Source of the DNA: Planctomycetota bacterium
Lineage (GTDB): Bacteria; Planctomycetota; Phycisphaerae; WQYP01
DNA: 64,000 bases
NCBI GenBank assembly: GCA_021790385.1
Contig: JAJYDW010000003.1
Coordinates: 25,869 to 89,868, forward strand
Direction of reading: 5' to 3'
The translations under genes were made by a program, and so were the position numbers. Each line of letters starts with the position of its first letter. Within the stretch, counting starts at the first letter, position 1. The notes beneath the pieces were generated by a model that was given only the letters and a program-made list of their open reading frames with translations, had not been told where the DNA came from and did no database searches. Below are positions 20,680 through 48,006 of this stretch, piece by piece.

Positions 20680-21789
20680 CTATTCTCCTTCAGCAGCCGG
20701 CTGCTGCTGCGTCATGCAGTGTAACGTGCCCAGGCCCCAGGCCAAATCGCGGCAGTAAACAGGTATCACCGGCCGATCAGTAAAACACGCCTCTAATACC
20801 TTAAGTGCCGCACCATCCGCCGGATCATTAAATACCGGCACCAACACCCCGGCGTTGCAGACATAAAAATTGGCATAACTGGCCGGCAGGCGCTGCCCGT
20901 CAAAAATCACTGGCTTGGGCATGGGCAGTTCCGCCACATCCAAGGAGCGCCCGCGATGATCGCGCATTTTCCGCAGCCGCCGCATATTCTCCGCCAGCGG
21001 TGCATAATTGGGATCCCGCTTATCTGGCTCGACGCACGCGACGATAGTAGATGGACCGGTAAATCTGGCGGTGTCGTCGATATGCCCATGCGTATCATCC
21101 CCCGCTATACCCTGCCCCAACCACAACACTTTCCGCACTCCCAGAAAATCACAGAGCGTCTGTTCCACCCCCGCCTGATCCAGTCCGGGATTCCGCTGTT
21201 GCACCGACGAAAGCAAACATTCTTCGGTGGTTAAAACACAACCCGCTCCATTGACATCTATGCTTCCTCCTTCGAGCACAAAACGCCGCGGCTTTCCATC
21301 CGCCCCCTTCACCATCGGCTGATATAAAGACAGACCGGCCGACCGGGCGATAAACCGCGGTACCTGCTGGTCCAGAAGATAGTTTTTGTACTTTGCCCAC
21401 GCGTTAAACTGCCAGCCAACGGCTGCTACTTTAGCTGCGGCACCTCGGCCACGGCGTACCATGGTCGGCCCGGAATCACGCGTCCAGATGCGATCGGTCG
21501 GGCGAATATGAAGTCGGACATTGCCAAATTCTTCACCATGATTTCGCACCAGTATTTTCCTGGCCACAGCTCGCTCAGAGGCATCTTGTACCAGAATGTG
21601 CACCACTTCCCCGGCTGCAATCAAACGTACAATTTCTGCAAATATCCATGGAATAGGACCAAATTTCCCCGGCCAATCCGCCCGATGATGCGGCCAGGCC
21701 AGCCACGTGGCTGCATGCCAATCCCATTCCGCCGGCATGGAAAAACCCTGCCTGGAAGGAACGGAATTGTTCTGCTGCACTGTGCCCAT
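20680..21789 (-). CDS. aguA: Agmatine deiminase
   Basis: MPAEWDWHAATWLAWPH, the GDDTHGHIDD motif and the C-terminal GTLHCMTQQQP (catalytic Cys) are typical of agmatine deiminases. Confidence 0.9.
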   Translation of the reverse strand: MGTVQQNNSVPSRQGFSMPAEWDWHAATWLAWPHHRADWPGKFGPIPWIFAEIVRLIAAGEVVHILVQDASERAVARKILVRNHGEEFGNVRLHIRPTDRIWTRDSGPTMVRRGRGAAAKVAAVGWQFNAWAKYKNYLLDQQVPRFIARSAGLSLYQPMVKGADGKPRRFVLEGGSIDVNGAGCVLTTEECLLSSVQQRNPGLDQAGVEQTLCDFLGVRKVLWLGQGIAGDDTHGHIDDTARFTGPSTIVACVEPDKRDPNYAPLAENMRRLRKMRDHRGRSLDVAELPMPKPVIFDGQRLPASYANFYVCNAGVLVPVFNDPADGAALKVLEACFTDRPVIPVYCRDLAWGLGTLHCMTQQQPAAEGE

Positions 21790-21858
21790 AAAACCTTTCG
21801 ATAGCCACCGGGTACAGGCTCGCGGCCGGCCCGATCACCCACACCAGGCTCGTGGACG

Positions 21859-22743
21859 TTAGTCGCCAAAACGCTTGGTCAACGGGCCATAATATTCAAT
21901 ACGCCGATCCCGGAAAAATGGCCAGTTACGTCGCGTTATTTCCTGCTGGGCAGGATCAATTTCAGCAATTAATATTTCTTCTTCCTGCCGCCCCGCCTGT
22001 TCCAGCACTCGTCCGAACGGATCACAGATAAATGAACTGCCGAAAAATTCAATCCCGCCGCCCGTCGCCCCTTCATGTCCCACGCGGTTGACCGCCGCTA
22101 CATACACGCCATTGGCAATCGCATGTGATCGCTGCATCGTTTGCCAGGCGCTAACCTGGGCTTCACCAAATTCCGCCTTTTCCCGTGGATGCCAGCCGAT
22201 GGCCGTGGGGTAAAACAGTACGCTCACATCCTGCATGGCCGTCAGCCGAGCCGCCTCCGGATACCATTGATCCCAGCAGATCAAAACCCCCAACCGGCCA
22301 AATCGCGTATCAAAGGCCTTAAAGCCCAAGTCCCCCGGCGTGAAATAGTATTTCTCAAAATACAGCGGATCATCCGGAATATGCATCTTACGGTACACAC
22401 CCAGCAACGCTCCATCGGCATCCAATACCGCTGCGGTATTGTGATAAATTCCCGCCGCCCGTTTCTCAAACAGCGACACCACCAGCACCACACCCAGTTC
22501 TTTCGCCAGCCGCCCGAAAACTTCCGTGGACGACCCCGGAATCGTTTCCGCCAGGTCAAAAAGCTGCAAATCCTGAGTCTGACAGAAATACAAGCTGCGA
22601 AAGAGTTCCTGGGTACAGATCACCTGCGCACCGCGTTGGGCCGCCTGCCGAATGAGCGCTACAGCCTTGTCCATGTTGGTTGCTGTATGATCCACGCAAC
22701 TCATCTGCACCAGTCCCACCCTGAATTTTTCTGTGCGTGCCAT
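21859..22743 (-). CDS. aguB: N-carbamoylputrescine amidase (nitrilase superfamily)
   Basis: It has the CN-hydrolase fold: VGLVQMSC, TQELF and LICWDQWYPE (catalytic Cys). It is adjacent to aguA. Confidence 0.88.
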   Translation of the reverse strand: MARTEKFRVGLVQMSCVDHTATNMDKAVALIRQAAQRGAQVICTQELFRSLYFCQTQDLQLFDLAETIPGSSTEVFGRLAKELGVVLVVSLFEKRAAGIYHNTAAVLDADGALLGVYRKMHIPDDPLYFEKYYFTPGDLGFKAFDTRFGRLGVLICWDQWYPEAARLTAMQDVSVLFYPTAIGWHPREKAEFGEAQVSAWQTMQRSHAIANGVYVAAVNRVGHEGATGGGIEFFGSSFICDPFGRVLEQAGRQEEEILIAEIDPAQQEITRRNWPFFRDRRIEYYGPLTKRFGD

Positions 22744-27076: not shown

Positions 27077-27180
27077 TGCCTGAAGCACCCGGCGGAGCTG
27101 GCACTTGCCAATCCAACCCCAAAACTATAGCATTACCAGTGCGTCGGCATGTTTCTCTCTTTATTTATGGAGAATATGTC

Positions 27181-27819
27181 ATGGTAGAGGCTGATCTCAA
27201 TTCACTCACGTTGGCCATCGGCAAGGGAAACCGCGCCGAAGCAGTGCGTCTGACCAAAGAGGCCATAAATGCCGCCACCCCGCCTGCCAAAGTGCTTGCG
27301 GCCATGGTGGCCGCCATGGACGATGTGGGCCGCAAGTTTCAATGTAATCAGGTCTTCGTTCCGGAAATGTTGATTGCAGCCCGGGCTATGCGCGAAAGCA
27401 TGGCTCTGCTGGAGCCGCTGCTGATAAAGGCTGGTATCAAGCCTGAATTTACCGCCGTTATCGGTACGGTGCAGGGAGACCTTCACGACATCGGAAAAAA
27501 CCTTGTGGCCATGATGTGGAAAGGGGCCAACTTCGGCGTTGTAGACTTGGGATCCAATGTACCTGCTGACAAATTTATTGCCGCCGTCCGCGAGCATAAC
27601 GCCAAAGTAGTCGGCCTCTCGGCCCTGCTTACCACCACCATGCCCGCCATGAAACAAACGGTTATGGCCTTGAAAGCCGCAAATTTACCGGGACTAAAGG
27701 TGGTAGTGGGCGGTGCCCCGATTACCGAATCCTTTGCCAGGGAAATAGGCGCGGATGGTTTTGCCGCCGATGCCGCCGGAGCGGTGGATACGGCACGGAG
27801 ACTGGTTGCCGCAGCCTGA
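27181..27819 (+). CDS. Corrinoid (cobalamin-binding) methyl-carrier protein, MtaC/MtbC/MtvC-like
   Basis: An N-terminal helical cap domain is followed by a Rossmann B12-binding domain. That domain has the DxHxxG motif (GTVQGDLHDIGKNLV), SxL (LSALLTTTM) and GG (VVVGGAP). The ATG at 27181 has a GGAG Shine-Dalgarno sequence 8 nt upstream. Confidence 0.9.
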   Translation: MVEADLNSLTLAIGKGNRAEAVRLTKEAINAATPPAKVLAAMVAAMDDVGRKFQCNQVFVPEMLIAARAMRESMALLEPLLIKAGIKPEFTAVIGTVQGDLHDIGKNLVAMMWKGANFGVVDLGSNVPADKFIAAVREHNAKVVGLSALLTTTMPAMKQTVMALKAANLPGLKVVVGGAPITESFAREIGADGFAADAAGAVDTARRLVAAA

Positions 27820-27879
27820 ACGGTTTCAACAGCCGTCTTTTCCGCAACGCAGAACACCATTCGACAAAGGCAGGTATCC

Positions 27880-29265
27880 ATGCAGAAAACCGTGGCTCAC
27901 ATTGAAGCATTTTTGAAAGGATTAGTGTTTGACTGCCAATCCTGCGGCCAATGTGTGCTTAGCCAAACCGGGTTGATCTGTCCCATGACTTGCCCAAAAG
28001 GCCTGCGCAATGGCCCCTGCGGCGGCACCTTGCATGGAGAATGTGAAGTATATCCAGATCGCCGTTGTGTGTGGGTACGTATCGGTCATCGCATCGCCGG
28101 CGCTTCCCTCGATACGCCTCCACTACTGCCGTCGCCCGACGCTCGTTTATTTAATACCTCATCTTATTTGAACATGCTCTCCGGATCAGACCGCGGCGGC
28201 CGCACACCTTTGCCATACCTGGATTTAGGCGATCGGCGTACCCGCCAGCCTGTGGCCACGCCATCACGGCTGGAACGACGGCTAAAATCCGGGGGCTTCG
28301 TTAAGACCTGTGAAATTCGCGCCCCGCGTACCGCCCGGTGGGATAACTTTGTGCGCCAAGCCCTGCTGGTGCGTGATCACTTTGACGCCGTCAACGCCAC
28401 CGCATACTTAAATGCCCGGCCATCGATCTCCTCACCGATGGCGGCGGTGAAACTCGGCCAGATGGGTATAGAGGCAATTTGCCAGTCTACCTGTCGAGAT
28501 CATACCCGAACCACCTTTATCGCGGAGCTGCTGGAAAACCAGATCAACGATGTCCATAACGTGATGTGCCTGACGGGCGATTCCTACAGCGGGGTGCCCA
28601 AGATTAAACAGGTGTTTGACATGGATGCCGCGCTGATGATTTATGAAGCCCGACATCTGCGTCATACCGGCATCATCCGTTTCACCGGCGAAACGATGCA
28701 ACCCACCCCGCAACCGTTCCTTGGTGCGGCCATTAATCCGTATACCGAGCCGATTGACGTGCCCATTCGCCGACTCAAGCAAAAAATTGCCGCCGGTGTC
28801 GATTTTATCCAGACGCAATTGGTATTTGACGTGCCGCGCTTCCGTCAATTTATGGATCTGTTTCGGCAGGAAAAAATGAATGAAGATGTATTTCTGATTG
28901 TCGGCGTACCGGTGGTAACATCCATGAAGGTTTTGGATATGCTGCCGAAAATACCCGGAGCACATCTTCCGCCGGAAATGATCCAGCATTTGAAGCAGGC
29001 CCCGGATATTGTTACCGCAGGGCTGGCCGCCGCCCGCAAAATTATCGAGGAAGTTTATGACATTCCAGGCGTTGCCGGCGTCCATCTGATGCTCTTCGGT
29101 CCGGATCACGCTGTGCTGCCGGGGTTGGTTGGTGATTTGCCGGTCAATCGATCAGATTGGAAGCCATCGCCGCTGGAACCGTTATTGCCGGTACCTGGCA
29201 CCAATACGGTTATCTCACCTGTTAAAACTCGTGGTATGAGGGCCGCATGTCCATTCCCAGTTTGA
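27880..29265 (+). CDS. metF: Fusion of a MetV-like Cys-rich domain (MTHFR_C type) to methylenetetrahydrofolate reductase (MetF)
   Basis: The N-terminus is CQSCGQCVLSQTGLICPMTCPKGLRNGPCGG...CEVYPDRRCVW. The MTHFR core follows: FVKTCEIRAPR...AICQSTCRDHTRTTFIAELLENQINDVHNVMCLTGD...FIQTQLVFD. Confidence 0.85.
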   Translation: MQKTVAHIEAFLKGLVFDCQSCGQCVLSQTGLICPMTCPKGLRNGPCGGTLHGECEVYPDRRCVWVRIGHRIAGASLDTPPLLPSPDARLFNTSSYLNMLSGSDRGGRTPLPYLDLGDRRTRQPVATPSRLERRLKSGGFVKTCEIRAPRTARWDNFVRQALLVRDHFDAVNATAYLNARPSISSPMAAVKLGQMGIEAICQSTCRDHTRTTFIAELLENQINDVHNVMCLTGDSYSGVPKIKQVFDMDAALMIYEARHLRHTGIIRFTGETMQPTPQPFLGAAINPYTEPIDVPIRRLKQKIAAGVDFIQTQLVFDVPRFRQFMDLFRQEKMNEDVFLIVGVPVVTSMKVLDMLPKIPGAHLPPEMIQHLKQAPDIVTAGLAAARKIIEEVYDIPGVAGVHLMLFGPDHAVLPGLVGDLPVNRSDWKPSPLEPLLPVPGTNTVISPVKTRGMRAACPFPV

Positions 29266-30137
29266 AAATCATCGGCGAGCGCATCAATCCCGGATTCGCC
29301 AAATCCAAAACCATGCTCGACGGTGGTGATATTGCCGGCCTGCAGGAACTGGCCCGATCCCAGACTGCCAAAGGCTGTGATTATCTCACAATTAATATCG
29401 GAGATCGGGCGGAGCGCGACAGCGGATTTTTGGTGGATGTCATCCAGGCCGTGCAAGCCGTCAGCCATCTGCCCCTGTCTTTTGATTATCCCAACCGGGC
29501 CGTACAGGAAATCTGCCTCAAGGCATGGCAGCCAGCCAAAGCCCAGGGCCGTAAACCCATTGTCAATTCCATTTCTGAATTGCGCTGGGATATGCTCGAT
29601 GTACTCAAGATAACCCCCGCCAAAGTGGTGCTCATGGCCTCTGAACGGATGGAAGACGGCCAACCCGTGCCCAATGAAACGCCCACCGAGATTGCCTCCA
29701 CCGTGCATCGGATGGTGCATAACATTCTCTCGAATGGCTATGGCTTGGGGCCTGAGGACTTATTTGTCGATGTATCGCTGACGCCGATCGCCATGGATAC
29801 CAATGGCCTGGTGCGGCGGGCTATAGAGGCCATCCGGCTCATCGGCGCTGATGCCGACCTTCACGGAATACATCTGGTTGTGGGGCTTTCCAATCTGGGT
29901 ATTATGCTGCCCAAAGTTGCTGTGGATGGCAGCCCGCTGCCGGTAAAAATAGAATCGGCCTTTCTCACCCTGACTATGCCGCACGGTCTGGACACTGTTT
30001 TAGGCACGCCGGGCCGCGATTACCGCATTCTGCCGCCCGATGATTTTGTTCTGCAAGGGTTCCAGCAAGCCATTGCGCTTGAGGGTTTTGATACCCTGGA
30101 GCGTATTCGTCGGCTTTATCAAAAGGACGAGGGATGA
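29247..30137 (+). CDS. Pterin-binding methyltransferase (methyl-corrinoid:tetrahydrofolate methyltransferase; MeTr/MtrH/CmuB-like)
   Basis: LKIIGERINPGFAKSKTMLDGGDIAGLQELARSQTAKGCDYLTINIG is typical of the pterin-binding (DHPS-like) TIM barrel of the MetH/AcsE type. It overlaps the upstream gene by 19 nt. Confidence 0.8.
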   Translation: MSIPSLKIIGERINPGFAKSKTMLDGGDIAGLQELARSQTAKGCDYLTINIGDRAERDSGFLVDVIQAVQAVSHLPLSFDYPNRAVQEICLKAWQPAKAQGRKPIVNSISELRWDMLDVLKITPAKVVLMASERMEDGQPVPNETPTEIASTVHRMVHNILSNGYGLGPEDLFVDVSLTPIAMDTNGLVRRAIEAIRLIGADADLHGIHLVVGLSNLGIMLPKVAVDGSPLPVKIESAFLTLTMPHGLDTVLGTPGRDYRILPPDDFVLQGFQQAIALEGFDTLERIRRLYQKDEG

Positions 30138-31384
30138 ATAACCTGTTGATCCAGGCGGAAAGCTATTTTGATGGGCGGCAGAACCACAGTGCAGGTCCGT
30201 ATCTGTTTACCCTCACCAATGGTATTATCCGAGACATTTGCGCCCTTCGACCCGGCGATGGTGTTCCAGCCATCCATGCCACCACGCCGCGTCTGCACAC
30301 AGCGTTTGTCATGCCAGGACTCGTCGAGGCTCATTGCCATTTGTTTCTGGACGGCGGCGAGTTGGATTTAACCGCACGCAAACAATATCTGACCGTAACC
30401 ACGGCCAGGATGCTGGATGTGGCACGATCCAATCTGGCCGCCAATACCGCCGCGGGTATCACGCTCATCCGTGATGCCGGTGATATTCACGGCGTAAATA
30501 CGTATTTGAAAGAAGAACTGGCCCACGCCCGCGGTGTCGTACCCGAGTTACGCAGTCCCGGCCGGGCCATTCGTAAGACCGGTCGCTATGGAAGTTTCAT
30601 GGCCCTGGAAGTCCGTGATGCGGAAAGTATCGAGCGAACCATTGAGAGCCTGGCCCCCACCGCCGACGATCTGAAAATTCTACTGACCGGCATCATTGAT
30701 TTCGAAAATGGCTGCGTCAAGGGACCCGTACAATTTGACCTCGCGGAAACACAGTTGATTGTCCGCACGGCTCGCCGCCTGGGCCTGAAAACGTACGCCC
30801 ATTGCAATGGGCCGGAAGCGCTTAACATTGCGGTGGATGCGGGAATCGATTCCATTGAGCATGGTTTTTTCATGGAACCGGATATCGTTAAGAAAATGGC
30901 CGACAAGGGTACCGCCTGGGTGCCCACCTTTGCACCGGTTTATTTTCAATTCGCGCGCCCCGATGTCACCAAATGGAACCCGGCCACCCTGGCCAAACTC
31001 CACGCCATTTTGCAGAATCATTTTCATACCGTCGCCGAGGCCTCCGCAAGGGGCGTACCCGTGGTCGCCGGATCCGATGCGGGAAGTTACGGCGTACCGC
31101 ATGGCACGGGCCTCATTGATGAGTTGCTGTTTCTACGGCAGGCCGGGCTGACGGTAGAGCAGGTGCTCAGCGCCGCCACGAGCGTCCCACGCCAACTTTG
31201 GAATGCGCCATCAGCGGATGTGGCGGTGGGCCAAGCCGCGAATTTTATTGCTCTGGCGGACTCGCCGTTGAATGATATAAACGCATTGCGCCAGGTCCGA
31301 CTGATCTGCCGCAATGGACAGGCAGTCAGGCCCGACGGTACCTCACCCACCCTCGCATCAACCGTCTTATCTATGGAAAAATGA
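30134..31384 (+). CDS. Metal-dependent amidohydrolase-superfamily protein
   Basis: It has the HxH motif (GLVEAHCHLF), later His residues (YAHCNG, IEHG) and the metal Asp in VVAGSDAG. An ATGA overlap links it to the upstream gene. Confidence 0.78.
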   Translation: MNNLLIQAESYFDGRQNHSAGPYLFTLTNGIIRDICALRPGDGVPAIHATTPRLHTAFVMPGLVEAHCHLFLDGGELDLTARKQYLTVTTARMLDVARSNLAANTAAGITLIRDAGDIHGVNTYLKEELAHARGVVPELRSPGRAIRKTGRYGSFMALEVRDAESIERTIESLAPTADDLKILLTGIIDFENGCVKGPVQFDLAETQLIVRTARRLGLKTYAHCNGPEALNIAVDAGIDSIEHGFFMEPDIVKKMADKGTAWVPTFAPVYFQFARPDVTKWNPATLAKLHAILQNHFHTVAEASARGVPVVAGSDAGSYGVPHGTGLIDELLFLRQAGLTVEQVLSAATSVPRQLWNAPSADVAVGQAANFIALADSPLNDINALRQVRLICRNGQAVRPDGTSPTLASTVLSMEK

Positions 31385-31385
31385 C

Positions 31386-32468
31386 ATGACCCAACTTACC
31401 AGCCAGGAACGTGTGAATCGGGCCTTGACGCGGCAGGATCACGACCGCGTGCCGCGACACGAATCCTTCTGGGGTGAAACAATCACCCGCTGGAAAGATG
31501 AAGGCCTTTCCGGCGATGCCCAGACTGTTTTAGATATGCTGGGCAGCGACTTTCACGGCTTGTGCTGGGTCTGGCCCAGTATTTTTCCAGGCCAGGACAC
31601 ACTCATTGAAGAAGACGCCCAAACCCGCGTGGTACGTGATGCTCAGGGCAAACGCGTGCGTTATTGGAAAGAAAAAAGCGGAACGCCCGAACATCTGGGC
31701 TTTGAGTGTTCCTCACGGGATGTGTGGGAACGCACCTTCAAACCGGCTTTGCTGGATACCGGCCTACAAATTGATCCGGATGCGGTTAAACGCAACTATC
31801 GGCAGGGTCGTTCGAAAAAGCTCTGGTGCCATCTGACTGGTGTAGAAAGTTTTGAGGAAACCCGGTCCCTCATGGGCGACGAAATTACACTCATGGCCAT
31901 GGTGGAAGACCCCGAATGGGTTCGCGATGTTTCCCGCACTTTTACCGACCAGACCCTGCGCAACTTTGATGCCGCCATGGCCACCGGCATTCAACCTGAC
32001 GGCCTGTGGATCTACGGCGACATGGCCTATAACCATGCGACCATGTGCTCACCAGAGATGTATAAGGAATTGATCTGGCCTGATCACAAGAGACTCGCCG
32101 ACTGGGCCCACGCGCACAATATGAAATTCATCTATCACACCGATGGCGATATCAACGGCGTGATGGATTTATACGTCAAAGCCGGGTTTGATTGTCTGCA
32201 ACCTCTTGAGGCCAAAGCCGGCGTGGATATTCGCAAGCTCTGCCCAAAATATGGCCGAGAGCTTGCATTCTTCGGCAACATCGATGTGATGAAAATGGCC
32301 ACCAACGACTTGGCCGCCATCGAAGAGGAAATAAAAAACAAATTCGCCGCCGGCATGGCTACCCAAGGGTACATTTACCATAGCGATCACAGTGTGCCGC
32401 CGCAGGTAAGCTGGAAAACCTATCAGGCCATCATGCAAATGGTTGAGAAATACGGACGCTATACCTAA
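31386..32468 (+). CDS. URO-D-family (MtaA/CmuA-like, COG0407-type) methyltransferase, paralog 1
   Basis: Features are the N-terminal DHDRVP and the core FIYHTDGDINGVMDLYVKAGFDCLQPLE. The length and TIM-barrel pattern fit the URO-D family. The ATG at 31386 lies 1 nt after the amidohydrolase stop. Confidence 0.78.
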   Translation: MTQLTSQERVNRALTRQDHDRVPRHESFWGETITRWKDEGLSGDAQTVLDMLGSDFHGLCWVWPSIFPGQDTLIEEDAQTRVVRDAQGKRVRYWKEKSGTPEHLGFECSSRDVWERTFKPALLDTGLQIDPDAVKRNYRQGRSKKLWCHLTGVESFEETRSLMGDEITLMAMVEDPEWVRDVSRTFTDQTLRNFDAAMATGIQPDGLWIYGDMAYNHATMCSPEMYKELIWPDHKRLADWAHAHNMKFIYHTDGDINGVMDLYVKAGFDCLQPLEAKAGVDIRKLCPKYGRELAFFGNIDVMKMATNDLAAIEEEIKNKFAAGMATQGYIYHSDHSVPPQVSWKTYQAIMQMVEKYGRYT

Positions 32469-32480
32469 AGGAGTATCAAG

Positions 32481-33599
32481 ATGACACCGCGACAGCGCTG
32501 GCTGGCGTTATTTAACAAACAACCCGCCGATCGTATACCGACCGACTACTGGGCCACGGGCGAATTCCACGCGAAAATACTGGCCAAGCTGGGCATCACC
32601 GGTACGGAAACGCAACACCCTGATCTAGATCCGGTATCCGCCTCACCCGAACAGCGAGCCGGGCGCGCCGACGAGATCCTCTGGCGGCGGCTCGATATTG
32701 ACCATCCGCGCGGGGTCGGACCACGCTGGAAGCTCAAAGCTCATCCGGATGATCCACAGGCCGATATGTGGGGCAATCGGCACCGCCGCATCGACTACGG
32801 AACCGGAGCGTATGATGAATTCGCCACCGGTCCGCTGGCTTCCATGACCACACCCGATCAAGTACGGGCGTTTCGCTGGCCGGACCCGGACGATTTTGAT
32901 TATTCATCCATTACCGAGGCATTGCATCATGACGATGGGTACCGCATTATTCAAGCCGGTGGATACGAGCCGTTTCTCATCTACGCCGGCATGCGCGGTA
33001 TGGAACAGGCTTATGAAGATCTGCTGCTCAATCCCGGCATGGTCGAAGCCGCCCTGGAAAAAATGTTCGCCTTCTTTTTTGAACACAATCGGCGCATTTT
33101 TCAGGCCGGCCGCGGTCATATTGACATGACCTACGTCGCGGAGGATTTAGCCGGCCAGACCGGACCGCTCTTTAGCCTGGAAATCTACCGTCGGTTCCTC
33201 CTTCCCTATCAGAAACGCATGGCCGACCTGGCCCGATCCTTCGGCATTCATATTTTTTACCACACCGACGGCGCTGCCCATGTATTCATTCCGGATCTCA
33301 TTCACACCGTCGGCATTGAGGTGCTCAACCCCATTCAATGGCGATGTCCGGGGATGGAACGGGAAACCCTGGCCCGCGACTTCGGCCATCTGGTGGCCTT
33401 TCATGGTGCCATAGACAACCAGCAGACACTCCCCTTCGGTACCCCCCAGCAGGTGGCCGAGGAGGTACGCCAAACAGCCGAGATATTCAAATCGTGCCGC
33501 TGGTTCTGCGCACCTTGTCACAACATCCAGGCGGTTACTCCCGTGGAAAATGTCATTGCCATGTATGAAACAGCCGCCAGTTTGAAATCACCGGGATAG
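32481..33599 (+). CDS. URO-D-family methyltransferase, paralog 2
   Basis: The N-terminal motif is PADRIP. The core IFYHTDGAAHVFIPDLIHTVGIEVLNPIQ is clearly homologous to paralog 1. Confidence 0.78.
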   Translation: MTPRQRWLALFNKQPADRIPTDYWATGEFHAKILAKLGITGTETQHPDLDPVSASPEQRAGRADEILWRRLDIDHPRGVGPRWKLKAHPDDPQADMWGNRHRRIDYGTGAYDEFATGPLASMTTPDQVRAFRWPDPDDFDYSSITEALHHDDGYRIIQAGGYEPFLIYAGMRGMEQAYEDLLLNPGMVEAALEKMFAFFFEHNRRIFQAGRGHIDMTYVAEDLAGQTGPLFSLEIYRRFLLPYQKRMADLARSFGIHIFYHTDGAAHVFIPDLIHTVGIEVLNPIQWRCPGMERETLARDFGHLVAFHGAIDNQQTLPFGTPQQVAEEVRQTAEIFKSCRWFCAPCHNIQAVTPVENVIAMYETAASLKSPG

Positions 33600-33656
33600 A
33601 TCACAGCTTGCGAGACTGGGTCGAACCGCGGCGGTAATATATAGGAGCAGATCACC

Positions 33657-34883
33657 ATGCCACCACATTCGCTGGCCACCGACCGCTTGGCACACCTGGA
33701 TTTCGCCGCACACAACACCGAGGTACAACAAGTCTGGCACGCATTTAATGAAGGCCTGCCCATTCGCACGCCCATCATCGTCGGCACCAACTCTCGCTAC
33801 TTTCTCTTGAATGGGCAGGCCAATCCATCGGGCATCAGCTTTCAGGAGTATTCCGAAAATCCCCGGGTCATGTTTGATAGCCAGTTGCAATTTCAACGCT
33901 GGTCACGACACAACATTCTTCAGGATGCCCAACTCGGCCTGCCCCAGAAATGGTCTCTGACACCGGATTTTCAAAATTATTACGAAGCCGGTTGGTTTGG
34001 CTGCCCCATTGTCTACCTCGACGGCCAGGTGCCGGATACCACTCCCGCATTTACAGATCATCCGGAGCAGATCATGGATCGCGGCCTGCCCGATCCATTT
34101 GGTGGGCTGATGGCCAGGGGATGGGATTATTTTCAGCATTTCAAAGAGCTTGCAGCCCGGCAGACCTACTGCGATATCCCGATTGAGATCTCCACACCGG
34201 GCTTTGGCTTGGGTACTGACGGCGTGATGACCGTGGCCTGCAACGTTTTCGGTCCCGAATTTGTGTGCACCGCCATGGTGGCCGAAACACAACGGCTGCA
34301 CCGGCTCTTCGAATTCATTACCGAAGCCACAATTCACCGCATGACCGCCTGGCGAAAACGGACTGGTATGCCGCTGACCGTCACAGATTTCGGCTTTGCC
34401 GATGACAGCATCGCCCTGATTTCCACCGATATGTACCGTCAGCACGTGCTGCCGCACCATCGCCGGCTTTGTAACGCCATGTGCCCCGCCGGGCGGCGAA
34501 GCATTCATCTATGCGGAGATGCCACCCGTCACTTTTTAACCATTCATGACGAATTAAATGTCTGGTCTTTTGATACCGGTTTCCCGGTCAACTTTGGCGA
34601 GTTGCGACGCCAATTGGGACCCAGGGTCCGTATACATGGAGGTCCGCACGTGGAATTGCTGCGCACCGGCCATCCTGCCACAATCCAGGCGGAGGTACAG
34701 CGCATTATGCAGTCCGGCATTCTGGCGGGAGGTTTATTTGTTCTGCGCGAAGGCAATAACCTGGCCCCCTTCACTCCGCTGGAAAATATAGAAGCGATGT
34801 ATCAGGCTGGAAAAGAATTTGGAAATCTCAAGGACTCTTTTTCCGCCATGACCACTGCGGCACCCCGATCGAAGAAACCATGA
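33657..34883 (+). CDS. URO-D-family-like methyltransferase, divergent paralog 3 (retains an H-x-C motif)
   Basis: RSIHLCGDATRHF resembles the HxCG zinc-ligand region of MtaA-type enzymes. Overall length and position in the operon also fit. Confidence 0.62.
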   Translation: MPPHSLATDRLAHLDFAAHNTEVQQVWHAFNEGLPIRTPIIVGTNSRYFLLNGQANPSGISFQEYSENPRVMFDSQLQFQRWSRHNILQDAQLGLPQKWSLTPDFQNYYEAGWFGCPIVYLDGQVPDTTPAFTDHPEQIMDRGLPDPFGGLMARGWDYFQHFKELAARQTYCDIPIEISTPGFGLGTDGVMTVACNVFGPEFVCTAMVAETQRLHRLFEFITEATIHRMTAWRKRTGMPLTVTDFGFADDSIALISTDMYRQHVLPHHRRLCNAMCPAGRRSIHLCGDATRHFLTIHDELNVWSFDTGFPVNFGELRRQLGPRVRIHGGPHVELLRTGHPATIQAEVQRIMQSGILAGGLFVLREGNNLAPFTPLENIEAMYQAGKEFGNLKDSFSAMTTAAPRSKKP

Positions 34884-36004
34884 TCCGTGAACTCCAATTG
34901 AAGCCCGATTTCGGATGCACCATCGACCGATTTGAAGCCTGGTGGAATGGCCAGGTGCTGGACCGCCCCCCAGTGACCCTCCGGGCCGCGGCTCCGGCCC
35001 GCACCGCCACGGCCCCGACACTCCCTCAACCTCCCCTGCTCTACGACCGCTGGATGGAGGTGCAATACGTCGTAGACACGGCCATAGAAGCCATTTCCCG
35101 TCGCGTTTATCCCGGCGATTCCTTGCCGATCTTCTGGGCCAATCTCGGCCCGGAAATTACCGCCACCCTGTTCGGATGCCCGCTGGAATTCGGCCCCGAC
35201 ACCAGTTGGTCTTCACCGGTGGTCCATCACCAAAACGAGTGGCAGAGAATTATCGACTCGCCGCCCGATTTTTCCAACATCTACTGGCAAACCATGGAAG
35301 CCATGATGCGCTATGCCCTGGATATTTGCGACCAACGATTTGTGGTCGGAATGACGGATTTGCATGGCAACTATGATATTTTAGCAGCGCTGCGCGACCC
35401 CCAGGCGTTGTGTGAAGATATTCTCGATGCCCCGGAACTGGTCCGGCAGGCAGGTCGCCACGTATCCAACGGATTTGCCATGGCGTTTAACCGACAATAC
35501 GCCATCGTCCGGCAGGCTGGTTTTGGCAGCACTTGCTGGACTCCGTCTTACCATCAAGGACCGGCCTATGTTCCGAGTTGTGATTTCTGGTGCATGGTTT
35601 CAAGTGAAGTCGCCTGCAATCTGATTTTGCCCGATATTCTGGTGGAAATGCAACCCCTGACTCGCAGTATCTTTCATCTCGATGGCCCGCAGGCTCTGCG
35701 CCACCTCGATCTGCTTCTGGAATTGCCGAACTTGCATGCCATACAATGGGTTTTCGGAGCCGGACATGGACCTGCCAGCGCCTGGATGGATGTTTACCGC
35801 CGCATCCGCAGCGCCGGTAAAGCGGTCCAGATTCTGGCGGAAAATCCCGCCGACGCCTTGGCTGTGCTCGCAGCTATTGGCCCGCGCGGCGTATGGCTGG
35901 ATGTCGGCGGACCCGAGTTTCCCTCCTTAGCCGCCGCCGATTCATTTTTACTCGAAGTCCAGCGACTGACCCGTACTCACCAGGTGAGGGGACCCACAAA
36001 ATAA
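34880..36004 (+). CDS. Hypothetical protein, probably a fourth very divergent URO-D-like barrel
   Basis: The N-terminal LDRPPV and the core IFHLDGPQALRHLDLLLELPNLHAIQWV sit where the YHTDG...LNPIQ block lies in paralogs 1 and 2. An ATGA overlap links it to paralog 3. The assignment is by eye only. Confidence 0.45.
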   Translation: MIRELQLKPDFGCTIDRFEAWWNGQVLDRPPVTLRAAAPARTATAPTLPQPPLLYDRWMEVQYVVDTAIEAISRRVYPGDSLPIFWANLGPEITATLFGCPLEFGPDTSWSSPVVHHQNEWQRIIDSPPDFSNIYWQTMEAMMRYALDICDQRFVVGMTDLHGNYDILAALRDPQALCEDILDAPELVRQAGRHVSNGFAMAFNRQYAIVRQAGFGSTCWTPSYHQGPAYVPSCDFWCMVSSEVACNLILPDILVEMQPLTRSIFHLDGPQALRHLDLLLELPNLHAIQWVFGAGHGPASAWMDVYRRIRSAGKAVQILAENPADALAVLAAIGPRGVWLDVGGPEFPSLAAADSFLLEVQRLTRTHQVRGPTK

Positions 36005-36264
36005 ATTCATATTTTACGGAACACTAACCGGCGATGTCTCCATTGCTGCGGCGAACATTAACGATGCGCTCGATCATGGATTTAGCCGCCGATGAACTAA
36101 CCCTACGCCTTTGACACCTTGGACCGCGAATCAAAGAAACCTATCACGACGGTCTCAAAGCGGCTGATATCGCAGAGGCAACTCTGACTGCGGATGGTCA
36201 TTTTCGCTCCTTTTGCTACAATCTCATCCAGCGGTCGGCAAAATCTACTCTGAAGGGAAAATGT

Positions 36265-38325
36265 ATGGATCAGGCTCGTAGCTATCGGCCCGAAGAAATT
36301 CGCAATATTGTCCTAGTGGGTCATACCGGGGCTGGGAAGACTACATTGGCAGAAGCCATTGCCCATCGTTGCGGTGTAATCTCGCGGATGGGAAGTGTGG
36401 AACAGGCCAATACCCTTTCAGACTTTGAGCCGGAAGCCCGACTGCACAAACACTCCACCAATTCCGTCCTCATGTACGCGACGCATCAGGGCCATCAGAT
36501 TAACTTAATCGACACTCCAGGTTATCCCGATTTTGTCGGTCAAGCCCTGGCGGCCATGCCGGCGGTAGAAACGGCGGTTATTGTCATTAATGCGCAAAGT
36601 GGCATTGAATTCAACAGTCGCCGGTTGTATCACGCCGCCGGCGAAATGGGGTTGGCCCGCATGATCGTCATTAATAAGATAGATCAGGCCGTGGATCTGC
36701 CGGCCTTGGTGGAACAGATCAAGGCCAGTTTCGGACCGGAGGTTCATTGCATCAATCTTCCGTGTAAAAATGCCACCGACGTTATCGACTGTTTTGACCA
36801 GACCGCCGGTCGTGCGGATTTCGGAAACGTTACCGACATTCATCGGGAAATGGTGGAATCCACGGTTGAAATTGATGATGCCCAGCTCGAACGCTATCTC
36901 GCCGGACAACCCATGGATCTGGCGGAACTGCGTAGTTGCTTCATCCGGGCGATGAATATCGGCCACGTGGTCCCGATTGTTTTCACTGCCGCCCGGCAGG
37001 AAGTGGGGATCGATGATTTGCTGCACATTCTCATTGAAGACGTACCATCACCCGTGACCGGCCGCGCCAAGCGGTTACGAAAGATTGCTGTCGGCGGCGC
37101 TGCGCCCGAAGAAATTATCGAGTGCCCCGCGGATCCGGCTGCTCCATTGCTTGCCCATGTCTTTAAGGTCACCACCGATCCGTATGTCGGGAAACTGGCC
37201 ATGCTGCGTGTGCTTAGCGGCAAGCTGGAATCGAATACGGCTTTTGTCTGTGGCACACAGAAAAAGACTCACAAGGCCGGCCACGTGCTAAAAGTGGAGG
37301 GTCGCGATCATCCGGAATCGGGTGTGGCTTACGCCGGAGATATGGTGGCTGTTTCAAAAATCGAAGACTTGCAGGTGGATCAGATTATCCATGCCGTGAC
37401 GCTTCATGACGAATTCAAGCCCCTGCCGCCGAAATATCCCACGCCCATGTTTTCCATGGCCATAGTACCCAAATCCCGTGGTGATGAGGCCAAGCTCTCT
37501 GCAGCCTTAACTAAACTGGTGGAGGAAGATCCAACGTTTCGGGTTTCCCACGATCCGCAGACTCATGAGATCATCGTACATGGACTCGGCGATATGCACG
37601 TGCGGGTGATGCTGGAAAAAATGAAAAATCGCTTCGGCATTGACGTGGGCACACAGCCTCCGCGTATTGCCTACCGGGAAACTATCAGCCTTAAGGCTGA
37701 GGGGCATTATCGCCACAAAAAGCAGACTGGCGGGGCCGGCCAGTTTGGCGAGGTTTACTTGCGGGTGGAACCGCTCGACCGCGGCAGCGGCCTGGAATTC
37801 GTTAACGAGGTTTTCGGCGGGGCTATTCCATCTCAGTACATCGCGTCTGTCGAAAAGGGTGTATATGACGCGATTGAGCACGGTCCGCTGGCTGGATATC
37901 CGGTACAGGATTTACGGGTTATTGTGCATGACGGTAAAAGTCATCCCGTGGATTCCAAGGACATCGCTTTTCGCATTGCCGGAAAATTTGCCGTACGCGA
38001 CGCCATTTTGAAGGCTAGACCGGCCCTTATCGAACCTATTGTTACTCTGGAAATCACCAGCCCCGAATGTTTTCTTGGGGTGATTACCAGCGATCTTAAT
38101 ACCCGCCGCGGCCGCATTACCCATACGGACTTGCCTGTACCATCCATCGCGATTGTCCGGGCCACTGCACCCCTGGCGGAGGTAACACAGTATGATAGTC
38201 AACTGCGGAGCCTTACTGCAGGGCAAGGTAGTTTTGTGATGGAGTTTTCCCACTATGACGCCGTTCCACCACAACTTCAGGCTAAACTCGCCGCTCAATA
38301 CAAACCGGCCGTGGAGACTGAATAA
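36265..38325 (+). CDS. Elongation factor G paralog (EF-G2-like translational GTPase)
   Basis: The G1 motif is VLVGHTGAGKTTLAEAI and G3 is DTPGYPDF. It has the full five-domain length, with HRHKKQTGGAGQFGEVYL in domain IV/V. It is not in an rpsL-rpsG-fusA-tuf context. Confidence 0.88.
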   Translation: MDQARSYRPEEIRNIVLVGHTGAGKTTLAEAIAHRCGVISRMGSVEQANTLSDFEPEARLHKHSTNSVLMYATHQGHQINLIDTPGYPDFVGQALAAMPAVETAVIVINAQSGIEFNSRRLYHAAGEMGLARMIVINKIDQAVDLPALVEQIKASFGPEVHCINLPCKNATDVIDCFDQTAGRADFGNVTDIHREMVESTVEIDDAQLERYLAGQPMDLAELRSCFIRAMNIGHVVPIVFTAARQEVGIDDLLHILIEDVPSPVTGRAKRLRKIAVGGAAPEEIIECPADPAAPLLAHVFKVTTDPYVGKLAMLRVLSGKLESNTAFVCGTQKKTHKAGHVLKVEGRDHPESGVAYAGDMVAVSKIEDLQVDQIIHAVTLHDEFKPLPPKYPTPMFSMAIVPKSRGDEAKLSAALTKLVEEDPTFRVSHDPQTHEIIVHGLGDMHVRVMLEKMKNRFGIDVGTQPPRIAYRETISLKAEGHYRHKKQTGGAGQFGEVYLRVEPLDRGSGLEFVNEVFGGAIPSQYIASVEKGVYDAIEHGPLAGYPVQDLRVIVHDGKSHPVDSKDIAFRIAGKFAVRDAILKARPALIEPIVTLEITSPECFLGVITSDLNTRRGRITHTDLPVPSIAIVRATAPLAEVTQYDSQLRSLTAGQGSFVMEFSHYDAVPPQLQAKLAAQYKPAVETE

Positions 38326-40204: not shown

Positions 40205-41539
40205 TTATGGAAATCGCAGGTAGCCGACGCCGAATCTACCTTTGCGCACCACCACAATGCGTACCACTTTAGCTTTGGGCATATACGGCAGCAGTGCCGC
40301 CAGGTCGTTTAAGGTTCGCACGCGATATGGGCCGATCTGCACGACTACGTCACCCGGCTTTATTCCAGCTTTCGCCGCCACCGAGCCTGGATTGATTTGT
40401 GTAACCAACAGGCCGCTTTGGGCGACCAGATGATATTTTTTAGCCAGCGCCGGTGTTACCTGATCCAGCCCCATCCCCAATATCTTTTCCGAGGCGAGTA
40501 CCACCGCCGGCGGAGGCGCTGGCTTGATGCGATATTCGCGCACCATGCCATTGCGAAATTTTACGGTTACCTCCTTTTGTGCCAGCGTTACTTTCAGCAG
40601 GGCCGCATAAGCATCCATCAGCGTGGGCGTGCGGTAGCTGTCAATGCTTTCCACCGCAGGACCTGGCGTTCCCGCCACCACTATTTTTTGATGCACATGA
40701 TCCGGACCGGTCATGGTCCGGATGACTGCCAGGTGCACAGGTATATCAATTTTGTTCACTGTGGCCGGATTCATCAAACGCGGAATCAAGGTTGAAAGGC
40801 GGTCCACTCCGATGGCAAAGCCAATGTTTTGAGCATTCCCGCGAATAGCGGTATTGATTCCGATGACCTGACCATAGATGTTAAGTAAAGGACCACCGGA
40901 ATTGCCTGGATTAATTGCCGCGTCCGTCTGAATGAGATTGGTCAGCGGCTTGGGATTATTGGGTTCCATGATTTGCCGATGAATAGCCGAAACAATGCCT
41001 GAACTCACACTTTGCGAATAGCCAAATGGGTTGCCGATGGCAATGGTCGGTTCACCGATCATTAAATTGGACGACAACCCCAGGGGAATGGTGGGAAATG
41101 AGCCTTTGCCGTCAATTTTTAAAACGGCAAGATCCGCTCTTGGATCACTGCCGACGACATGTGCGGAAAGCCTTTTTCCGTTCGCCAGCGTAACATGAAT
41201 TTCCTGGGCCTGATCCACCACATGGTTGTTGGTAATCACGTAGCCATCATGTTGGATAATAAATCCGCTGCCGAGAAAATCAGCCGGCACCTGCACCACC
41301 GGCCCCACATTGAACTGCCGCCAGAAAAAATTGTTTGGAAATGGATTTACCCGCTGCCTTACCAGCCGTTTTGCCGTAATGCTGACCACCGCCGGGCCTC
41401 GCCGCTTAACCACTTGCACAATCAGCGTGTCGCGCAGATTAACCGTGTTGGGTCTTGGATTCCACGCCTGGTGCCCCGCGGCCCAGGAAAACATTGCCGT
41501 CAGCAGCAGCACAACTGACAGAACCATGACTTTTTTCAC
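40205..41539 (-). CDS. HtrA/DegP-family periplasmic serine protease with PDZ domain(s)
   Basis: It has a signal peptide, His in GSGFIIQHDGYVITNNHVV and Ser in TDAAINPGNSGGPLLN. The C-terminal PDZ includes AAKAGIKPGDVVVQIG. Confidence 0.9.
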   Translation of the reverse strand: MKKVMVLSVVLLLTAMFSWAAGHQAWNPRPNTVNLRDTLIVQVVKRRGPAVVSITAKRLVRQRVNPFPNNFFWRQFNVGPVVQVPADFLGSGFIIQHDGYVITNNHVVDQAQEIHVTLANGKRLSAHVVGSDPRADLAVLKIDGKGSFPTIPLGLSSNLMIGEPTIAIGNPFGYSQSVSSGIVSAIHRQIMEPNNPKPLTNLIQTDAAINPGNSGGPLLNIYGQVIGINTAIRGNAQNIGFAIGVDRLSTLIPRLMNPATVNKIDIPVHLAVIRTMTGPDHVHQKIVVAGTPGPAVESIDSYRTPTLMDAYAALLKVTLAQKEVTVKFRNGMVREYRIKPAPPPAVVLASEKILGMGLDQVTPALAKKYHLVAQSGLLVTQINPGSVAAKAGIKPGDVVVQIGPYRVRTLNDLAALLPYMPKAKVVRIVVVRKGRFGVGYLRFP

Positions 41540-41649
41540 GTTTGCACTCCAAATAACGGCCCACGCGGCACCGACAATAAATACCGCAAGAATCCGATAA
41601 AGGCCAGTGGCGGGGGTTAAACTGCGGCTTTGCCCGGCGTGCGATGCAC

Positions 41650-42756
41650 TTATTCCCGCATGGCTGTCGGCTCAATAAGCAGATCCACCCTCTCATAACT
41701 GCGCAAGATCACCATCCCCGTAGGCCGCGAGATTAAGTCCTCCGTGAGTACGCGATGAAGATCATCAATCGCGGCGATAGTTCGCCCGGCCATGGCGATG
41801 ATAACATCCGATGGTACCAAACCGGCCTGATCCGCCGGACTGGCTTCTTCCACTGTCGCCACCAAAACACCAGTTTCAACCGGCAGCTTATAAAAGCGTG
41901 CCAGCCGCCGCGGAATAGGCGCATTTCGCCCTGTCACGCCAATATAACTTCGTGCCACCCTGCCGTCACGTATCAGATGCGATGCCACATACCGGGCGGT
42001 GTCGGAGGAAATGGCAAAGCATAGTCCCTGTCCGGGCAAAAGAACGGCGGTATTTACACCGATTACCGCACCTCTCCCCGACACCAGGGGACCGCCGGAA
42101 TTACCGGGGTTCAGCGCAGCGTCGGTTTGAATCACATTTTCAATGAGCCGGCCGGACACTGCCCGAAAGGATCGCCCCAACGCGCTGACCACACCAGCGG
42201 TGACCGTGGCGTCAAAGCCCAGCGGACTGCCAATCGCAATGGCCAGTTGGCCCACTTTCAGCCGGGAAGAGTCGCCGAGTTCGGCTGTGGGCAGATTGTC
42301 GGCTTCCACACGAATCACCGCCAGATCGGTATGCGGATCATCACCGATCAAACGGGCTGATACATTCCGGCCATCCGCGGTCAAAACCCGCAGCGATTCG
42401 GCCCCATGCACCACATGGCTGTTGGTTAGAATAAAACCATCCGGCGTCAAGGCGAATCCTGACCCGCTGCCGCGCCCCGCGCGGCCATCGCCATTGATCT
42501 GTTCACCGTAGGTTACTTCAAGTTTCACCACGCTCGGCCCAACTGTCTCAACCGCTCGCGTTATCGCCTGAGAATAGGCATCCATCGGCTCGTCATCGCT
42601 TGTGGCGAATTTCCGATCTGCCGTTTCAACGGATTCACCGCCGTCCGGCTGCTCCGGCTCATGGCCTTGACTTACTGGTCTTATCACAAAATTCCTTTCC
42701 TGTGGCCTTTCCAGCCACAATCCGAAAAGCACGGCTGAGACCGGTACTTGGTCCAA
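41650..42756 (-). CDS. HtrA-family serine protease with one PDZ domain (paralog). The start is uncertain (TTG at 42756).
   Basis: Motifs are GSGFALTPDGFILTNSHVV, TDAALNPGNSGGPLVS and the PDZ segment PADQAGLVPSDVIIAMAG. Confidence 0.87.
   Translation of the reverse strand: MDQVPVSAVLFGLWLERPQERNFVIRPVSQGHEPEQPDGGESVETADRKFATSDDEPMDAYSQAITRAVETVGPSVVKLEVTYGEQINGDGRAGRGSGSGFALTPDGFILTNSHVVHGAESLRVLTADGRNVSARLIGDDPHTDLAVIRVEADNLPTAELGDSSRLKVGQLAIAIGSPLGFDATVTAGVVSALGRSFRAVSGRLIENVIQTDAALNPGNSGGPLVSGRGAVIGVNTAVLLPGQGLCFAISSDTARYVASHLIRDGRVARSYIGVTGRNAPIPRRLARFYKLPVETGVLVATVEEASPADQAGLVPSDVIIAMAGRTIAAIDDLHRVLTEDLISRPTGMVILRSYERVDLLIEPTAMRE

Positions 42757-47933: not shown

Positions 47934-48006
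<73 letters not shown>

Follow-up and report, generated by a model that had tools for sequence, protein, structure and literature searches.

Apart from MetH, most known cases of corrinoid-dependent methyl transfer come from strict anaerobes, and the process has only recently been described in marine Proteobacteria that are called aerobic by the authors. The cmu cluster of the aerobes Methylobacterium and Hyphomicrobium has, along with a metF of its own, a UroD-type methyltransferase and a CmuB-like enzyme that binds pterin. O-demethylases of acetogens, Desulfitobacterium and Methermicoccus combine a donor-side methyltransferase I (MT-I; OdmB, VdmB, MtvB, MtoB or CdmB) with a corrinoid protein, a methyltransferase II (MT-II) and an activating enzyme; in such systems the gene for the activating enzyme may lie elsewhere, not every MT-I contains zinc, and the substrates of UroD-superfamily MT-I enzymes include methoxy-aromatics and halomethanes (PMC13222342). 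In the MtgBCDE and split methionine synthase systems of Ruegeria pomeroyi and Phaeobacter inhibens, each genome has several donor-specific methyltransferases that work with one shared carrier and a bidirectional tetrahydrofolate (THF) methyltransferase, reactivation depends on a RamA-like protein and on DUF1638, and the pathway is linked to methionine synthesis and to oxidation of one-carbon (C1) units on THF (PMC12478193, PMC5764234). Type 1 mlp clusters, which are widespread and found only in obligate anaerobes (73% Firmicutes), encode several MtaA-like UroD proteins of distinct lineages together with one corrinoid protein plus a Ram/RACE activase, and have no THF methyltransferase (PMC10418091). 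Here we describe an eight-gene operon at positions 27181-36004 of a 64,000-nucleotide (nt) stretch of planctomycete DNA (contig JAJYDW010000003.1, assembly GCA_021790385.1; the whole 64-kb stretch is called the window below), which is most likely a modular cobalamin-dependent methyl-transfer system of a Phycisphaerae-like planctomycete.

The eight tightly packed open reading frames (ORFs) all lie on the forward strand and encode, from 5' to 3', a corrinoid (B12) carrier protein, a MetV-MetF fusion, a pterin-binding MT-II, an amidohydrolase-superfamily hydrolase (AH) and four barrel proteins, U1 to U4, with junctions of +60, -19, -4 (ATGA), +1, +12, +57 and -4 (ATGA) nt. An initial annotation, made from the sequence alone, had described a tight same-strand block of nine genes. 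The operon-like packing holds, and independent gene calls in sister metagenome-assembled genomes (MAGs) give the same genes with the same 19-nt and 4-nt overlaps; the number of genes falls to eight, MetV and MetF being one ORF. The start of U1 is set at 31386 and not at the first ATG (31314), because the sister MAGs have independent calls of 360 amino acids (aa) and family members measure about 347-395 aa, mostly ~360 aa. The motifs that it quoted (DLHDIG, SALL and GG in the carrier, HCH in the AH, and YHTDG, IHLCGD and FHLDG in the barrels) are all found in the translations, and its placement of the host in a Planctomycetes-Verrucomicrobia-Chlamydiae (PVC)-like lineage agrees with the loci closest to the operon, which come from Planctomycetota/Phycisphaerae MAGs.

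The carrier (27181..27819, 212 aa) contains the Pfam domains B12-binding_2 (PF02607, 64 bits) and B12-binding (PF02310, 93 bits), and has the B12-binding cap, Rossmann domain and His-on DxHxxG motif of a stand-alone corrinoid protein. Its best PDB matches are the Moorella cobalamin-binding protein 1y80 (E 6e-48) and then the D. hafniense O-demethylase corrinoid protein 4jgi, and it scores below the cut-offs of the NCBIfam MtgC/pyl_corrinoid-like models (169.6 vs 370 and 142 vs 310 bits). MT-II (29247..30137, 296 aa) carries a Pterin_bind domain (PF00809), has the features of a pterin-binding methyl-corrinoid:THF methyltransferase, and best matches the D. hafniense O-demethylase MT-II (4o0q/4o1e), followed by MeTr and MetH; with the NCBIfam model PRK07535 it scores 91 bits, below the 259-bit cut-off. 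The likeness to O-demethylases lies in the stand-alone His-on carrier, the UroD barrels and the pterin-binding MT-II; for carrier and MT-II, the solved structures closest in sequence are those of O-demethylase systems or of Moorella. The differences are that the host here is a Planctomycetota heterotroph with a cytochrome bd oxidase rather than a strict anaerobe, that the barrels belong to subfamilies with no characterized member and are only remotely similar to curated models, and that the operon adds the MetV-MetF fusion and the AH and has no activase gene in the window.

The 461-aa MetV-MetF protein (27880..29265) unites DUF5981 (PF12225, residues 3-73, 85.8 bits) with a methylene-THF reductase domain (MTHFR, PF02219, residues 131-405, 82.6 bits), the pair of domains that marks MetVF-type reductases, and its PDB matches are MTHFRs with E values of 1e-9 and weaker. 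It shares with the MetVF of acetogens the Cys-rich MetV domain and the MTHFR barrel, but here they form one polypeptide and no Rnf, Hdr or other partner genes lie nearby. The N-terminal Cys-rich MetV domain precedes the reductase barrel, whereas Opitutae relatives have the reversed order, MTHFR and then DUF5981. Pfam bears out the carrier, MetV, MetF, Pterin_bind and Amidohydro domains of the initial annotation, and the solved relatives (O-demethylase, Moorella, MtaA) as well as the related loci fit the corrinoid methyl-transfer parts list that it had drawn up.

The four barrels, which that annotation assigned collectively to the URO-D family, are more heterogeneous. Pfam URO-D matches U1 (31386..32468, 360 aa), U2 (32481..33599, 372 aa; 63.5 bits) and U3 (33657..34883, 408 aa; 77.7 bits), in each case only over the C-terminal half. 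For U4 (34880..36004, 374 aa), whose start overlaps the U3 stop, searches of Pfam, NCBIfam and PDB sequences gave no match, so the assignment stands for three barrels by hidden Markov model (HMM) and for the fourth by predicted structure. AlphaFold models of U4 and U1 were built from family alignments. The U4 model (predicted local distance difference test score 91) finds MtaA (4ay8) and UROD as its best Foldseek hits (E 3.5e-8, template modeling (TM) score ~0.58), and the U1 model (score 87) finds UROD/MtaA at TM 0.6-0.66; across the best PDB neighbors of both, UROD and MtaA, TM ranges over 0.55-0.66 at 10-16% identity. U4 is thus predicted to be a very divergent UroD-fold barrel, which is seen by modeled structure and detected by no HMM, and which the initial annotation had guessed correctly. 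U1 had no PDB sequence match, and neither the U4 nor the U1 family profile had a significant hit in the PDB.

Against the mtaA_cmuA model TIGR01463, U1, U2 and U3 score 30.9, 46.3 and 40.3 bits (cut-off 235.4), with no match for U4; against the HemE model TIGR01464, U1 scores 19.5 bits (cut-off 302.95), with no match for U2-U4. By these scores, U1-U3 are not true decarboxylases, and they stand outside the curated methanogen/cmu subfamily as well. UroD family membership or fold is found for all four barrels, as is a genomic association with carrier genes, and each may act as a corrinoid methyltransferase.

The sole significant PDB sequence match of U3 is the methanogen MtaA (4ay7, E 2e-6, over the C-terminal 200 residues). 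The HMMER alignment sets IHLCGD opposite LHICGN, with the HxC motif in register, while Asn367, which is invariant in the U3 family, stands opposite the later Cys of MtaA, which we take to be a zinc ligand. None of the barrels has the complete MtaA-type zinc site of HxC and later Cys: U3 has the HxC with Asn367, and at the motif position U1 and U2 have YHTDG and U4 has FHLDG, that is, H-x-D with Asp in place of Cys. The likeness to the MtaABC system of methanogens lies in the HxC register of U3, in the superposition of the U1 and U4 models on MtaA and in the MtaB homologs of some related arrays; the substituted residues, scores far under the family cut-offs and the lack of an MtaB gene in the window are differences. 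To our knowledge, coenzyme M is not expected in these bacteria.

U1 and U2 had been called clear paralogs, which is too strong, as they share 31% identity over just 98 residues; U1 and U2 are 20-23% identical to U3, and U4 has no BLAST match to U1, U2 or U3. A comparison of the U4 and U3 families with hhalign gave a weak probability of 1.8%, yet aligned FHLDG with IHLCG. In the protein database, with relatives counted as clusters at 90% identity, we found 1325 relatives of U1 (69-78% identity; Verrucomicrobiota, Phycisphaeraceae, Chthoniobacteraceae), 1584 of U3 (~60% identity; Terrimicrobiaceae, Methylacidiphilales, Tepidisphaeraceae, Armatimonadota) and 713 of U4 (~60% identity; Armatimonadota, Caldilineaceae, Verrucomicrobiota, Lentisphaerae), while the best counterparts of U2, taken from within related loci, are 40-56% identical. 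The U1 family keeps H251-T-D253, E275 and, in the HSDHS string near the C-terminus, H332-S-D334-H335 invariant; U3 (25 members) keeps C195, C204, H284-L-C286, E365, N367 and N368; and U4 keeps D160-L-H162, H266-L-D268 and H275. Such invariance in U1, U3 and U4 suggests functional enzymes under strong constraint and argues against recent tandem duplication. With close relatives of U1, U3 and U4 in other phyla, the four barrels are four distinct ancient subfamilies and not a local tandem amplification.

We then used U4 to find related loci. Its relatives occupy 315 stretches from species-representative genomes, of which the best 80, all from MAGs, were analyzed within their available flanks (up to 10 kb, with some loci on short contigs). 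Antisense ORFs of these GC-rich genomes overwhelmed an all-against-all clustering of the stop-to-stop ORFs, which was replaced; neighbors were surveyed with greedy non-overlapping ORF sets and bulk Pfam scans. A corrinoid protein is encoded at 23 of the 80 loci, a RACo activase at 21, DUF1638 at 17, an S-methyl_trans domain at 29, MT-II at 19, MetVF at 15 and MtaB at 2. Counterparts of U1 (at least 45% identity) occur at 27 loci, of U2 (at least 40%) at 9, of U3 (at least 45%) at 5 and of the AH (at least 35%) at 5.

The intact eight-gene order is present only in the closest Planctomycetota/Phycisphaerae MAGs (83-98% protein identity); GCA_027342625.1 and GCA_027436015.1 are two sister MAGs. 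Elsewhere the parts recur in larger arrangements. In ~20 Opitutae MAGs, RACo and DUF1638 genes are divergent from a series of carrier, U1, two further barrels, U4, S-methyl_trans and another barrel, with U1 directly 3' of the carrier gene. In a Tepidisphaeraceae array the RACo and DUF1638 genes are likewise divergent from a carrier gene and seven barrel genes, U3 among them, and a Phycisphaeraceae array joins carrier, MtaB and S-methyl_trans to counterparts of U1 (60%), U2 (56%), U4 (51%) and U3 (40%). In Caldilineaceae and Litorilinea (Chloroflexota), the carrier gene ends 3 nt before U4. In some related arrays MtaB homologs adjoin carrier and U1, and an S-methyl_trans gene often adjoins U4. 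At one representative Opitutae locus (L057:13105-20811, reverse strand), a convergent operon encodes MetF-MetV, MT-II, formate-THF ligase (908 bits), a major facilitator superfamily (MFS) transporter and a YitJ-like S-methyl_trans+MTHFR fusion; this arrangement was seen in ~15 Opitutae loci. One Opitutae MAG (CAIQKV01) carries two types of U4, a 57%-identity copy with no corrinoid marker nearby and a 48%-identity copy inside a corrinoid array (L021, L061), so that the U4 family has at least two subtypes with different contexts.

These cross-phylum links to B12-carrier systems provide good support for corrinoid-dependent methyl transfer as the function class, and the window operon is a compact member of a widespread family of such arrays in polysaccharide-degrading bacteria. 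Our survey of the literature on corrinoid and UroD enzymes, PVC phyla and methyl-sugar demethylation found no characterized ortholog and no description of these arrays. We have likened the locus, by analogy, to the O-demethylase MT-I/corrinoid/MT-II systems and to MtgBCDE; measured against the features that define them, it falls outside the MtaA/CmuA subfamily, HemE, the cmu pathway and MtgBCDE. With MtgBCDE it shares a modular B12 system outside strict anaerobes, and the related Opitutae, Tepidisphaeraceae and Chloroflexota arrays share RACo and DUF1638 and/or S-methyl_trans; the split B12 methionine synthase of Phaeobacter needs RamA-like and DUF1638 proteins, both assigned by the authors to B12 reactivation (PMC5764234). 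The donor enzymes of MtgBCDE, however, belong to the MttB superfamily (PF06253) and not to the UroD superfamily, the window has no MtgE-like S-methyl_trans, RACo or DUF1638, and the carrier scores below the MtgC cut-off (170 vs 370 bits); the architecture is analogous only. Type 1 mlp clusters differ in having an activase where the window has MT-II and MetVF with no activase, and in their hosts; identity with them was set aside in a comparison of gene content and hosts.

Based on these data, we propose, with a probability of roughly 0.55, that the system collects methyl groups from donors on a single B12 carrier and hands them to THF, with MetVF then oxidizing them. One His-on corrinoid protein would cycle between Co(I) and CH3-Co(III), and the UroD-fold barrels would dock on this protein to carry out methyl exchange with small molecules; among the barrels, the likeliest donor-side (MT-I) enzymes are U1 and U2, and the roles of U3 and U4 are less certain. 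MT-II would move the methyl group between carrier and THF, and the MetV-MetF fusion would interconvert CH3-THF and CH2-THF, giving a net flow from methylated donor(s) through carrier, THF and CH2-THF to the C1 pool, with reductive reactivation of the carrier supplied by genes outside the window. We prefer the harvesting direction because related arrays add MtaB (a donor-side enzyme), transporters, and formate-THF ligase beside MetF-MetV and MT-II, and because several donor-specific enzymes acting on one carrier is an established pattern (PMC12478193, PMC13222342). Marine Proteobacteria, aerobic according to the authors, offer a precedent, in which several donor methyltransferases share one carrier and cooperate with a THF methyltransferase that works in both directions (PMC12478193). 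The glycan-degrading lifestyle of the taxa that carry these genes, and their AraC, transporter and glycosidase neighbors, suggest as candidate donors the O-methyl ethers of glycans or aromatics, or else C1 compounds such as methanol.

Several observations weigh against harvesting. U1-U3 fall far under the MtaA/CmuA family cut-off (31-46 vs 235 bits), the cross-phylum identity of U1 (69-78%) is unusually high for a catabolic MT-I, and, as the four subfamilies have no characterized member, the proposed role would rest on domains, folds and gene context. The MetVF and MT-II steps are reversible, so that gene content does not fix the direction, and the Ruegeria counterpart of MT-II is bidirectional (PMC12478193). 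Some parts are also missing from the window: tblastn and Pfam scans of the other ORFs found no RACo/RamA-type activase and no DUF1638, and the ORFs scanned with Pfam include no FolD, Fhs or PurU. S-methyl_trans (PF02574) was likewise absent by Pfam and by tblastn with an S-methyl_trans query, MtaB by tblastn and MttB-family domains by Pfam. The initial annotation, which was right that the window holds no activase, had regarded this as unusual; it is not, because activating enzymes of characterized systems are often encoded elsewhere (PMC13222342). Finally, at 33 of the 80 loci, some on short contigs, the flank available around the U4 relative showed neither a corrinoid-system marker nor another barrel, and the most widespread U3 relative is solitary, beside an AraC regulator. 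An AraC-type regulator recurs at 6 of these 33 U4 loci (Planctomycetota or Verrucomicrobiota), and in the bulk scans the recurrent neighbors of solitary U4 genes are only AraC, PhyH, glycosidases of glycoside hydrolase (GH) families 78 and 2, and esterase/peptidase genes. The glycosidase and esterase/peptidase genes recur mainly in related Armatimonadota genomes, and all these neighbors together are a weak pointer to substrates; further neighbors in related loci are sugar-type ATP-binding cassette (ABC) permeases, GH2, GH127 and melibiase. A solitary barrel gene could depend on a carrier whose gene lies at another place in the genome, or else U4, perhaps along with other barrels, could have a chemistry with no need for B12.

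The reversibility just noted also allows the opposite flow, in which MetV-MetF would make CH3-THF, MT-II would load the carrier and one or more barrels would methylate a thiol, as in a split MetH; U3, with its MtaA/MetE-like HxC, would be the best candidate, acting on homocysteine to give methionine or on another acceptor. Carrier, Pterin_bind and MTHFR are indeed the modules of methionine synthesis minus the homocysteine domain, and there are known cases of a split B12 methionine synthase that relies on RamA-like and DUF1638 proteins for reactivation (PMC5764234, PMC12478193). The frequent S-methyl_trans genes (29/80 loci, often adjoining U4), the YitJ-like fusion in Opitutae arrays, and the window itself, which has no S-methyl_trans but has in U3 an HxC aligned to a thiol methyltransferase, point the same way, as do the high conservation of the barrels, the lack of an adjacent regulator gene and a location among housekeeping genes, with thymidylate synthase and dihydrofolate reductase (DHFR) genes following in sister MAGs. 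Methionine synthesis, however, needs no four different barrels. U3 has Asn where MtaA has its later Cys, the other barrels have Asp at the motif, and all persist in arrays that contain S-methyl_trans, so that they are not simple substitutes for it; moreover, the co-occurring MtaB and transporters and the AraC regulators beside solitary relatives point to inducible uptake and catabolism. We consider the anabolic direction, the main rival of harvesting, possible but doubtful. The solitary U4 genes raise another explanation, namely that U4, possibly with other barrels, is no corrinoid methyltransferase and performs another reaction on the same class of substrates, for example processing the demethylated product, alongside a B12-dependent or an oxygen-dependent (PhyH-type) partner. 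At one locus with no corrinoid gene detected in the flank (L036), a gene for PhyH, an Fe/2-oxoglutarate dioxygenase (7704-8660), ends 3 nt before U4 (8663-9757), with an AraC regulator divergent from PhyH. Homologs of this PhyH occur in L034 and L069, other PhyH genes lie near U3/U4 relatives (L004:146-961, L085:12400-13293, L086:14916-15758, L088:7795-8613), and Armatimonadota loci have a GH78 rhamnosidase gene directly downstream of a U4-like/U4 pair. These neighborhoods, the AraC genes at six solitary loci, the 33 loci with neither corrinoid marker nor other barrel in the flank, the failure of any UroD-family model to match U4 and the 1.8% hhalign probability all favor a mixed function. Nevertheless, the U4 model is a full UroD/MtaA barrel whose H-x-D is aligned by hhalign to the H-x-C of U3, U4 is translationally coupled to U3 in the window, follows the carrier gene by 3 nt in Caldilineaceae and Litorilinea and is embedded in the carrier/RACo arrays of ~20 Opitutae MAGs, and solitary genes can draw on a carrier encoded elsewhere; we regard a mixed function as unlikely.

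Two further explanations turn on the identity of the barrels. A cmu-like halomethane pathway, or a methylthiol/dimethyl sulfide pathway of the MtsA type, is suggested by the UroD-superfamily membership of CmuA, MecE/MecC, CdmB and MtsA (PMC13222342). The cmu cluster also has its own metF, and U1-U3 do match mtaA_cmuA weakly, although at scores far below the cut-off. In addition, the Pfam-scanned window ORFs include no CmuA-type methyltransferase-corrinoid fusion, folD or purU, the reductase is a MetV-MetF fusion and not a plain MetF, and neither the taxa that carry these genes nor their AraC, ABC/MFS transporter and glycosidase neighbors suggest a gaseous substrate; we judge such pathways quite improbable. 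The cmu pathway proper was rejected on the low mtaA_cmuA scores, the separate 212-aa carrier and the absence of folD and purU from the Pfam scans, and the analogy that the initial annotation had drawn to it is accordingly weak. That annotation had itself raised the case that the four proteins might be genuine uroporphyrinogen decarboxylases, or else TIM barrels of an unrelated kind; their clustering here would then be coincidental. Databases do label their relatives 'uroporphyrinogen decarboxylase', and Foldseek ranks UROD structures as high as MtaA. The HemE score (19.5 bits vs 303 for U1, nothing for U2-U4) is nevertheless so far below its cut-off that true HemE identity was rejected, four copies stand in one operon with a B12 carrier, and genes for carrier, RACo, DUF1638 and MT-II accompany such barrels repeatedly across phyla; we consider this case hardly credible.

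Returning to methyl harvesting, a wider version of it can be imagined, in which novel UroD-superfamily arrays, with the window as a compact example, form a widespread and so far overlooked B12 route of glycan degraders, stripping methyl ethers from carbohydrate-derived or other plant/algal substrates (e.g., O-methyl deoxy-sugars) with no oxygenases and passing the methyl groups to THF and methionine synthesis, while U4 with PhyH would be a parallel, oxygen-dependent version. Such a route, in Planctomycetota, Verrucomicrobiota, Armatimonadota, Caldilineaceae and Lentisphaerae, is a speculation that we put forward as rather unlikely in this full form.

The AH (30134..31384, 416 aa), whose start overlaps the MT-II stop (ATGA), matches Amidohydro_1 (PF01979, 72 bits) and, in the PDB, ochratoxin-type amidohydrolases (8ihq), Xaa-Pro dipeptidase 2qs8 and the Arg carboxypeptidase Cc2672 (3mtw). 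Its translation contains the metal-ligand-like strings HCH, DLKILL, AHCNG, IEHG and GSDAG, which were assigned by eye as putative ligands. The initial annotation had read this enzyme as a hint of a hydrolytic step in the system; with only 5 of the 80 loci having it, 4 of them in sister MAGs of the window, it is a lineage-specific accessory and not a core part. In both lineages that have it, the window clade and one Opitutaceae MAG, it sits beside the MT-II gene; in the latter, the sole case outside the clade, a 40%-identical AH gene is convergent to MT-II (L075:3757-5838). This coupling to MT-II in two lineages prompted the speculation that the AH might be a folate-branch hydrolase standing in for PurU or Fhs.

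The operon is flanked by housekeeping genes, with a UDP-sugar pyrophosphorylase upstream and elongation factor G (EF-G) downstream by Pfam, and the remainder of the window is largely housekeeping as well, including one sulfatase and cytochrome bd oxidase genes, from which at least microaerobic respiration of the host follows. Rfam detected neither a cobalamin riboswitch nor any other kind of RNA element in the vicinity of the operon, and promoter and terminator scans gave weak consensus matches only (27105-27133 and 36190-36207), the terminators being not above background. In the window (36265-38325) and in sister locus L005 the operon is followed by EF-G, whereas in L001 (12481-13871) and L006 thymidylate synthase and DHFR follow directly; these different neighbors indicate that the 3' end of the operon coincides with a rearrangement breakpoint. 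On the reverse strand ~15 kb upstream (7350-11759), an unusual 853-aa ORF fuses a sugar-type SBP_bac_1 domain to an ABC permease domain and adjoins a 603-aa permease, and ~22 kb from the operon lies a large GH63/MGH1-like glycoside hydrolase gene (57690-60392, reverse strand), with a similar gene ~6 kb from U4 in a Verrucomicrobiia locus (L087:17112-19877) that may be a coincidence. Other neighbors include adjacent agmatine deiminase and N-carbamoylputrescine amidase genes (20680-22743, reverse strand), a putrescine synthesis pair apparently unrelated to the operon; two tandem HtrA-like PDZ serine protease genes adjoining cydAB, which encode the cytochrome bd oxidase (40205-45338, reverse strand); and N6/N4 DNA methylase and HNH endonuclease genes beside a tRNA gene (47934-48006), which may be a small restriction-modification or mobile insertion (46043-48006).

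The mechanism class is familiar, and what is new lies in the enzymes and the breadth of their distribution: four UroD-superfamily subfamilies with no characterized member, of which one escapes HMM libraries, a MetV-MetF fusion with a domain order opposite to that of Opitutae relatives, and a host phylum not known for this metabolism. The locus and hundreds of related arrays display four unusually conserved UroD-superfamily subfamilies wired to a B12 carrier in abundant polysaccharide-degrading phyla of soil and fresh water. The compact eight-gene set, with one carrier, one MT-II and one reductase, is convenient for in vitro reconstitution. The substrates of these arrays, once found, could give carbon-cycle models a further sink or source of methyl groups, could yield oxygen-independent demethylases for biocatalysis, and could help explain the demand for B12 in these phyla.

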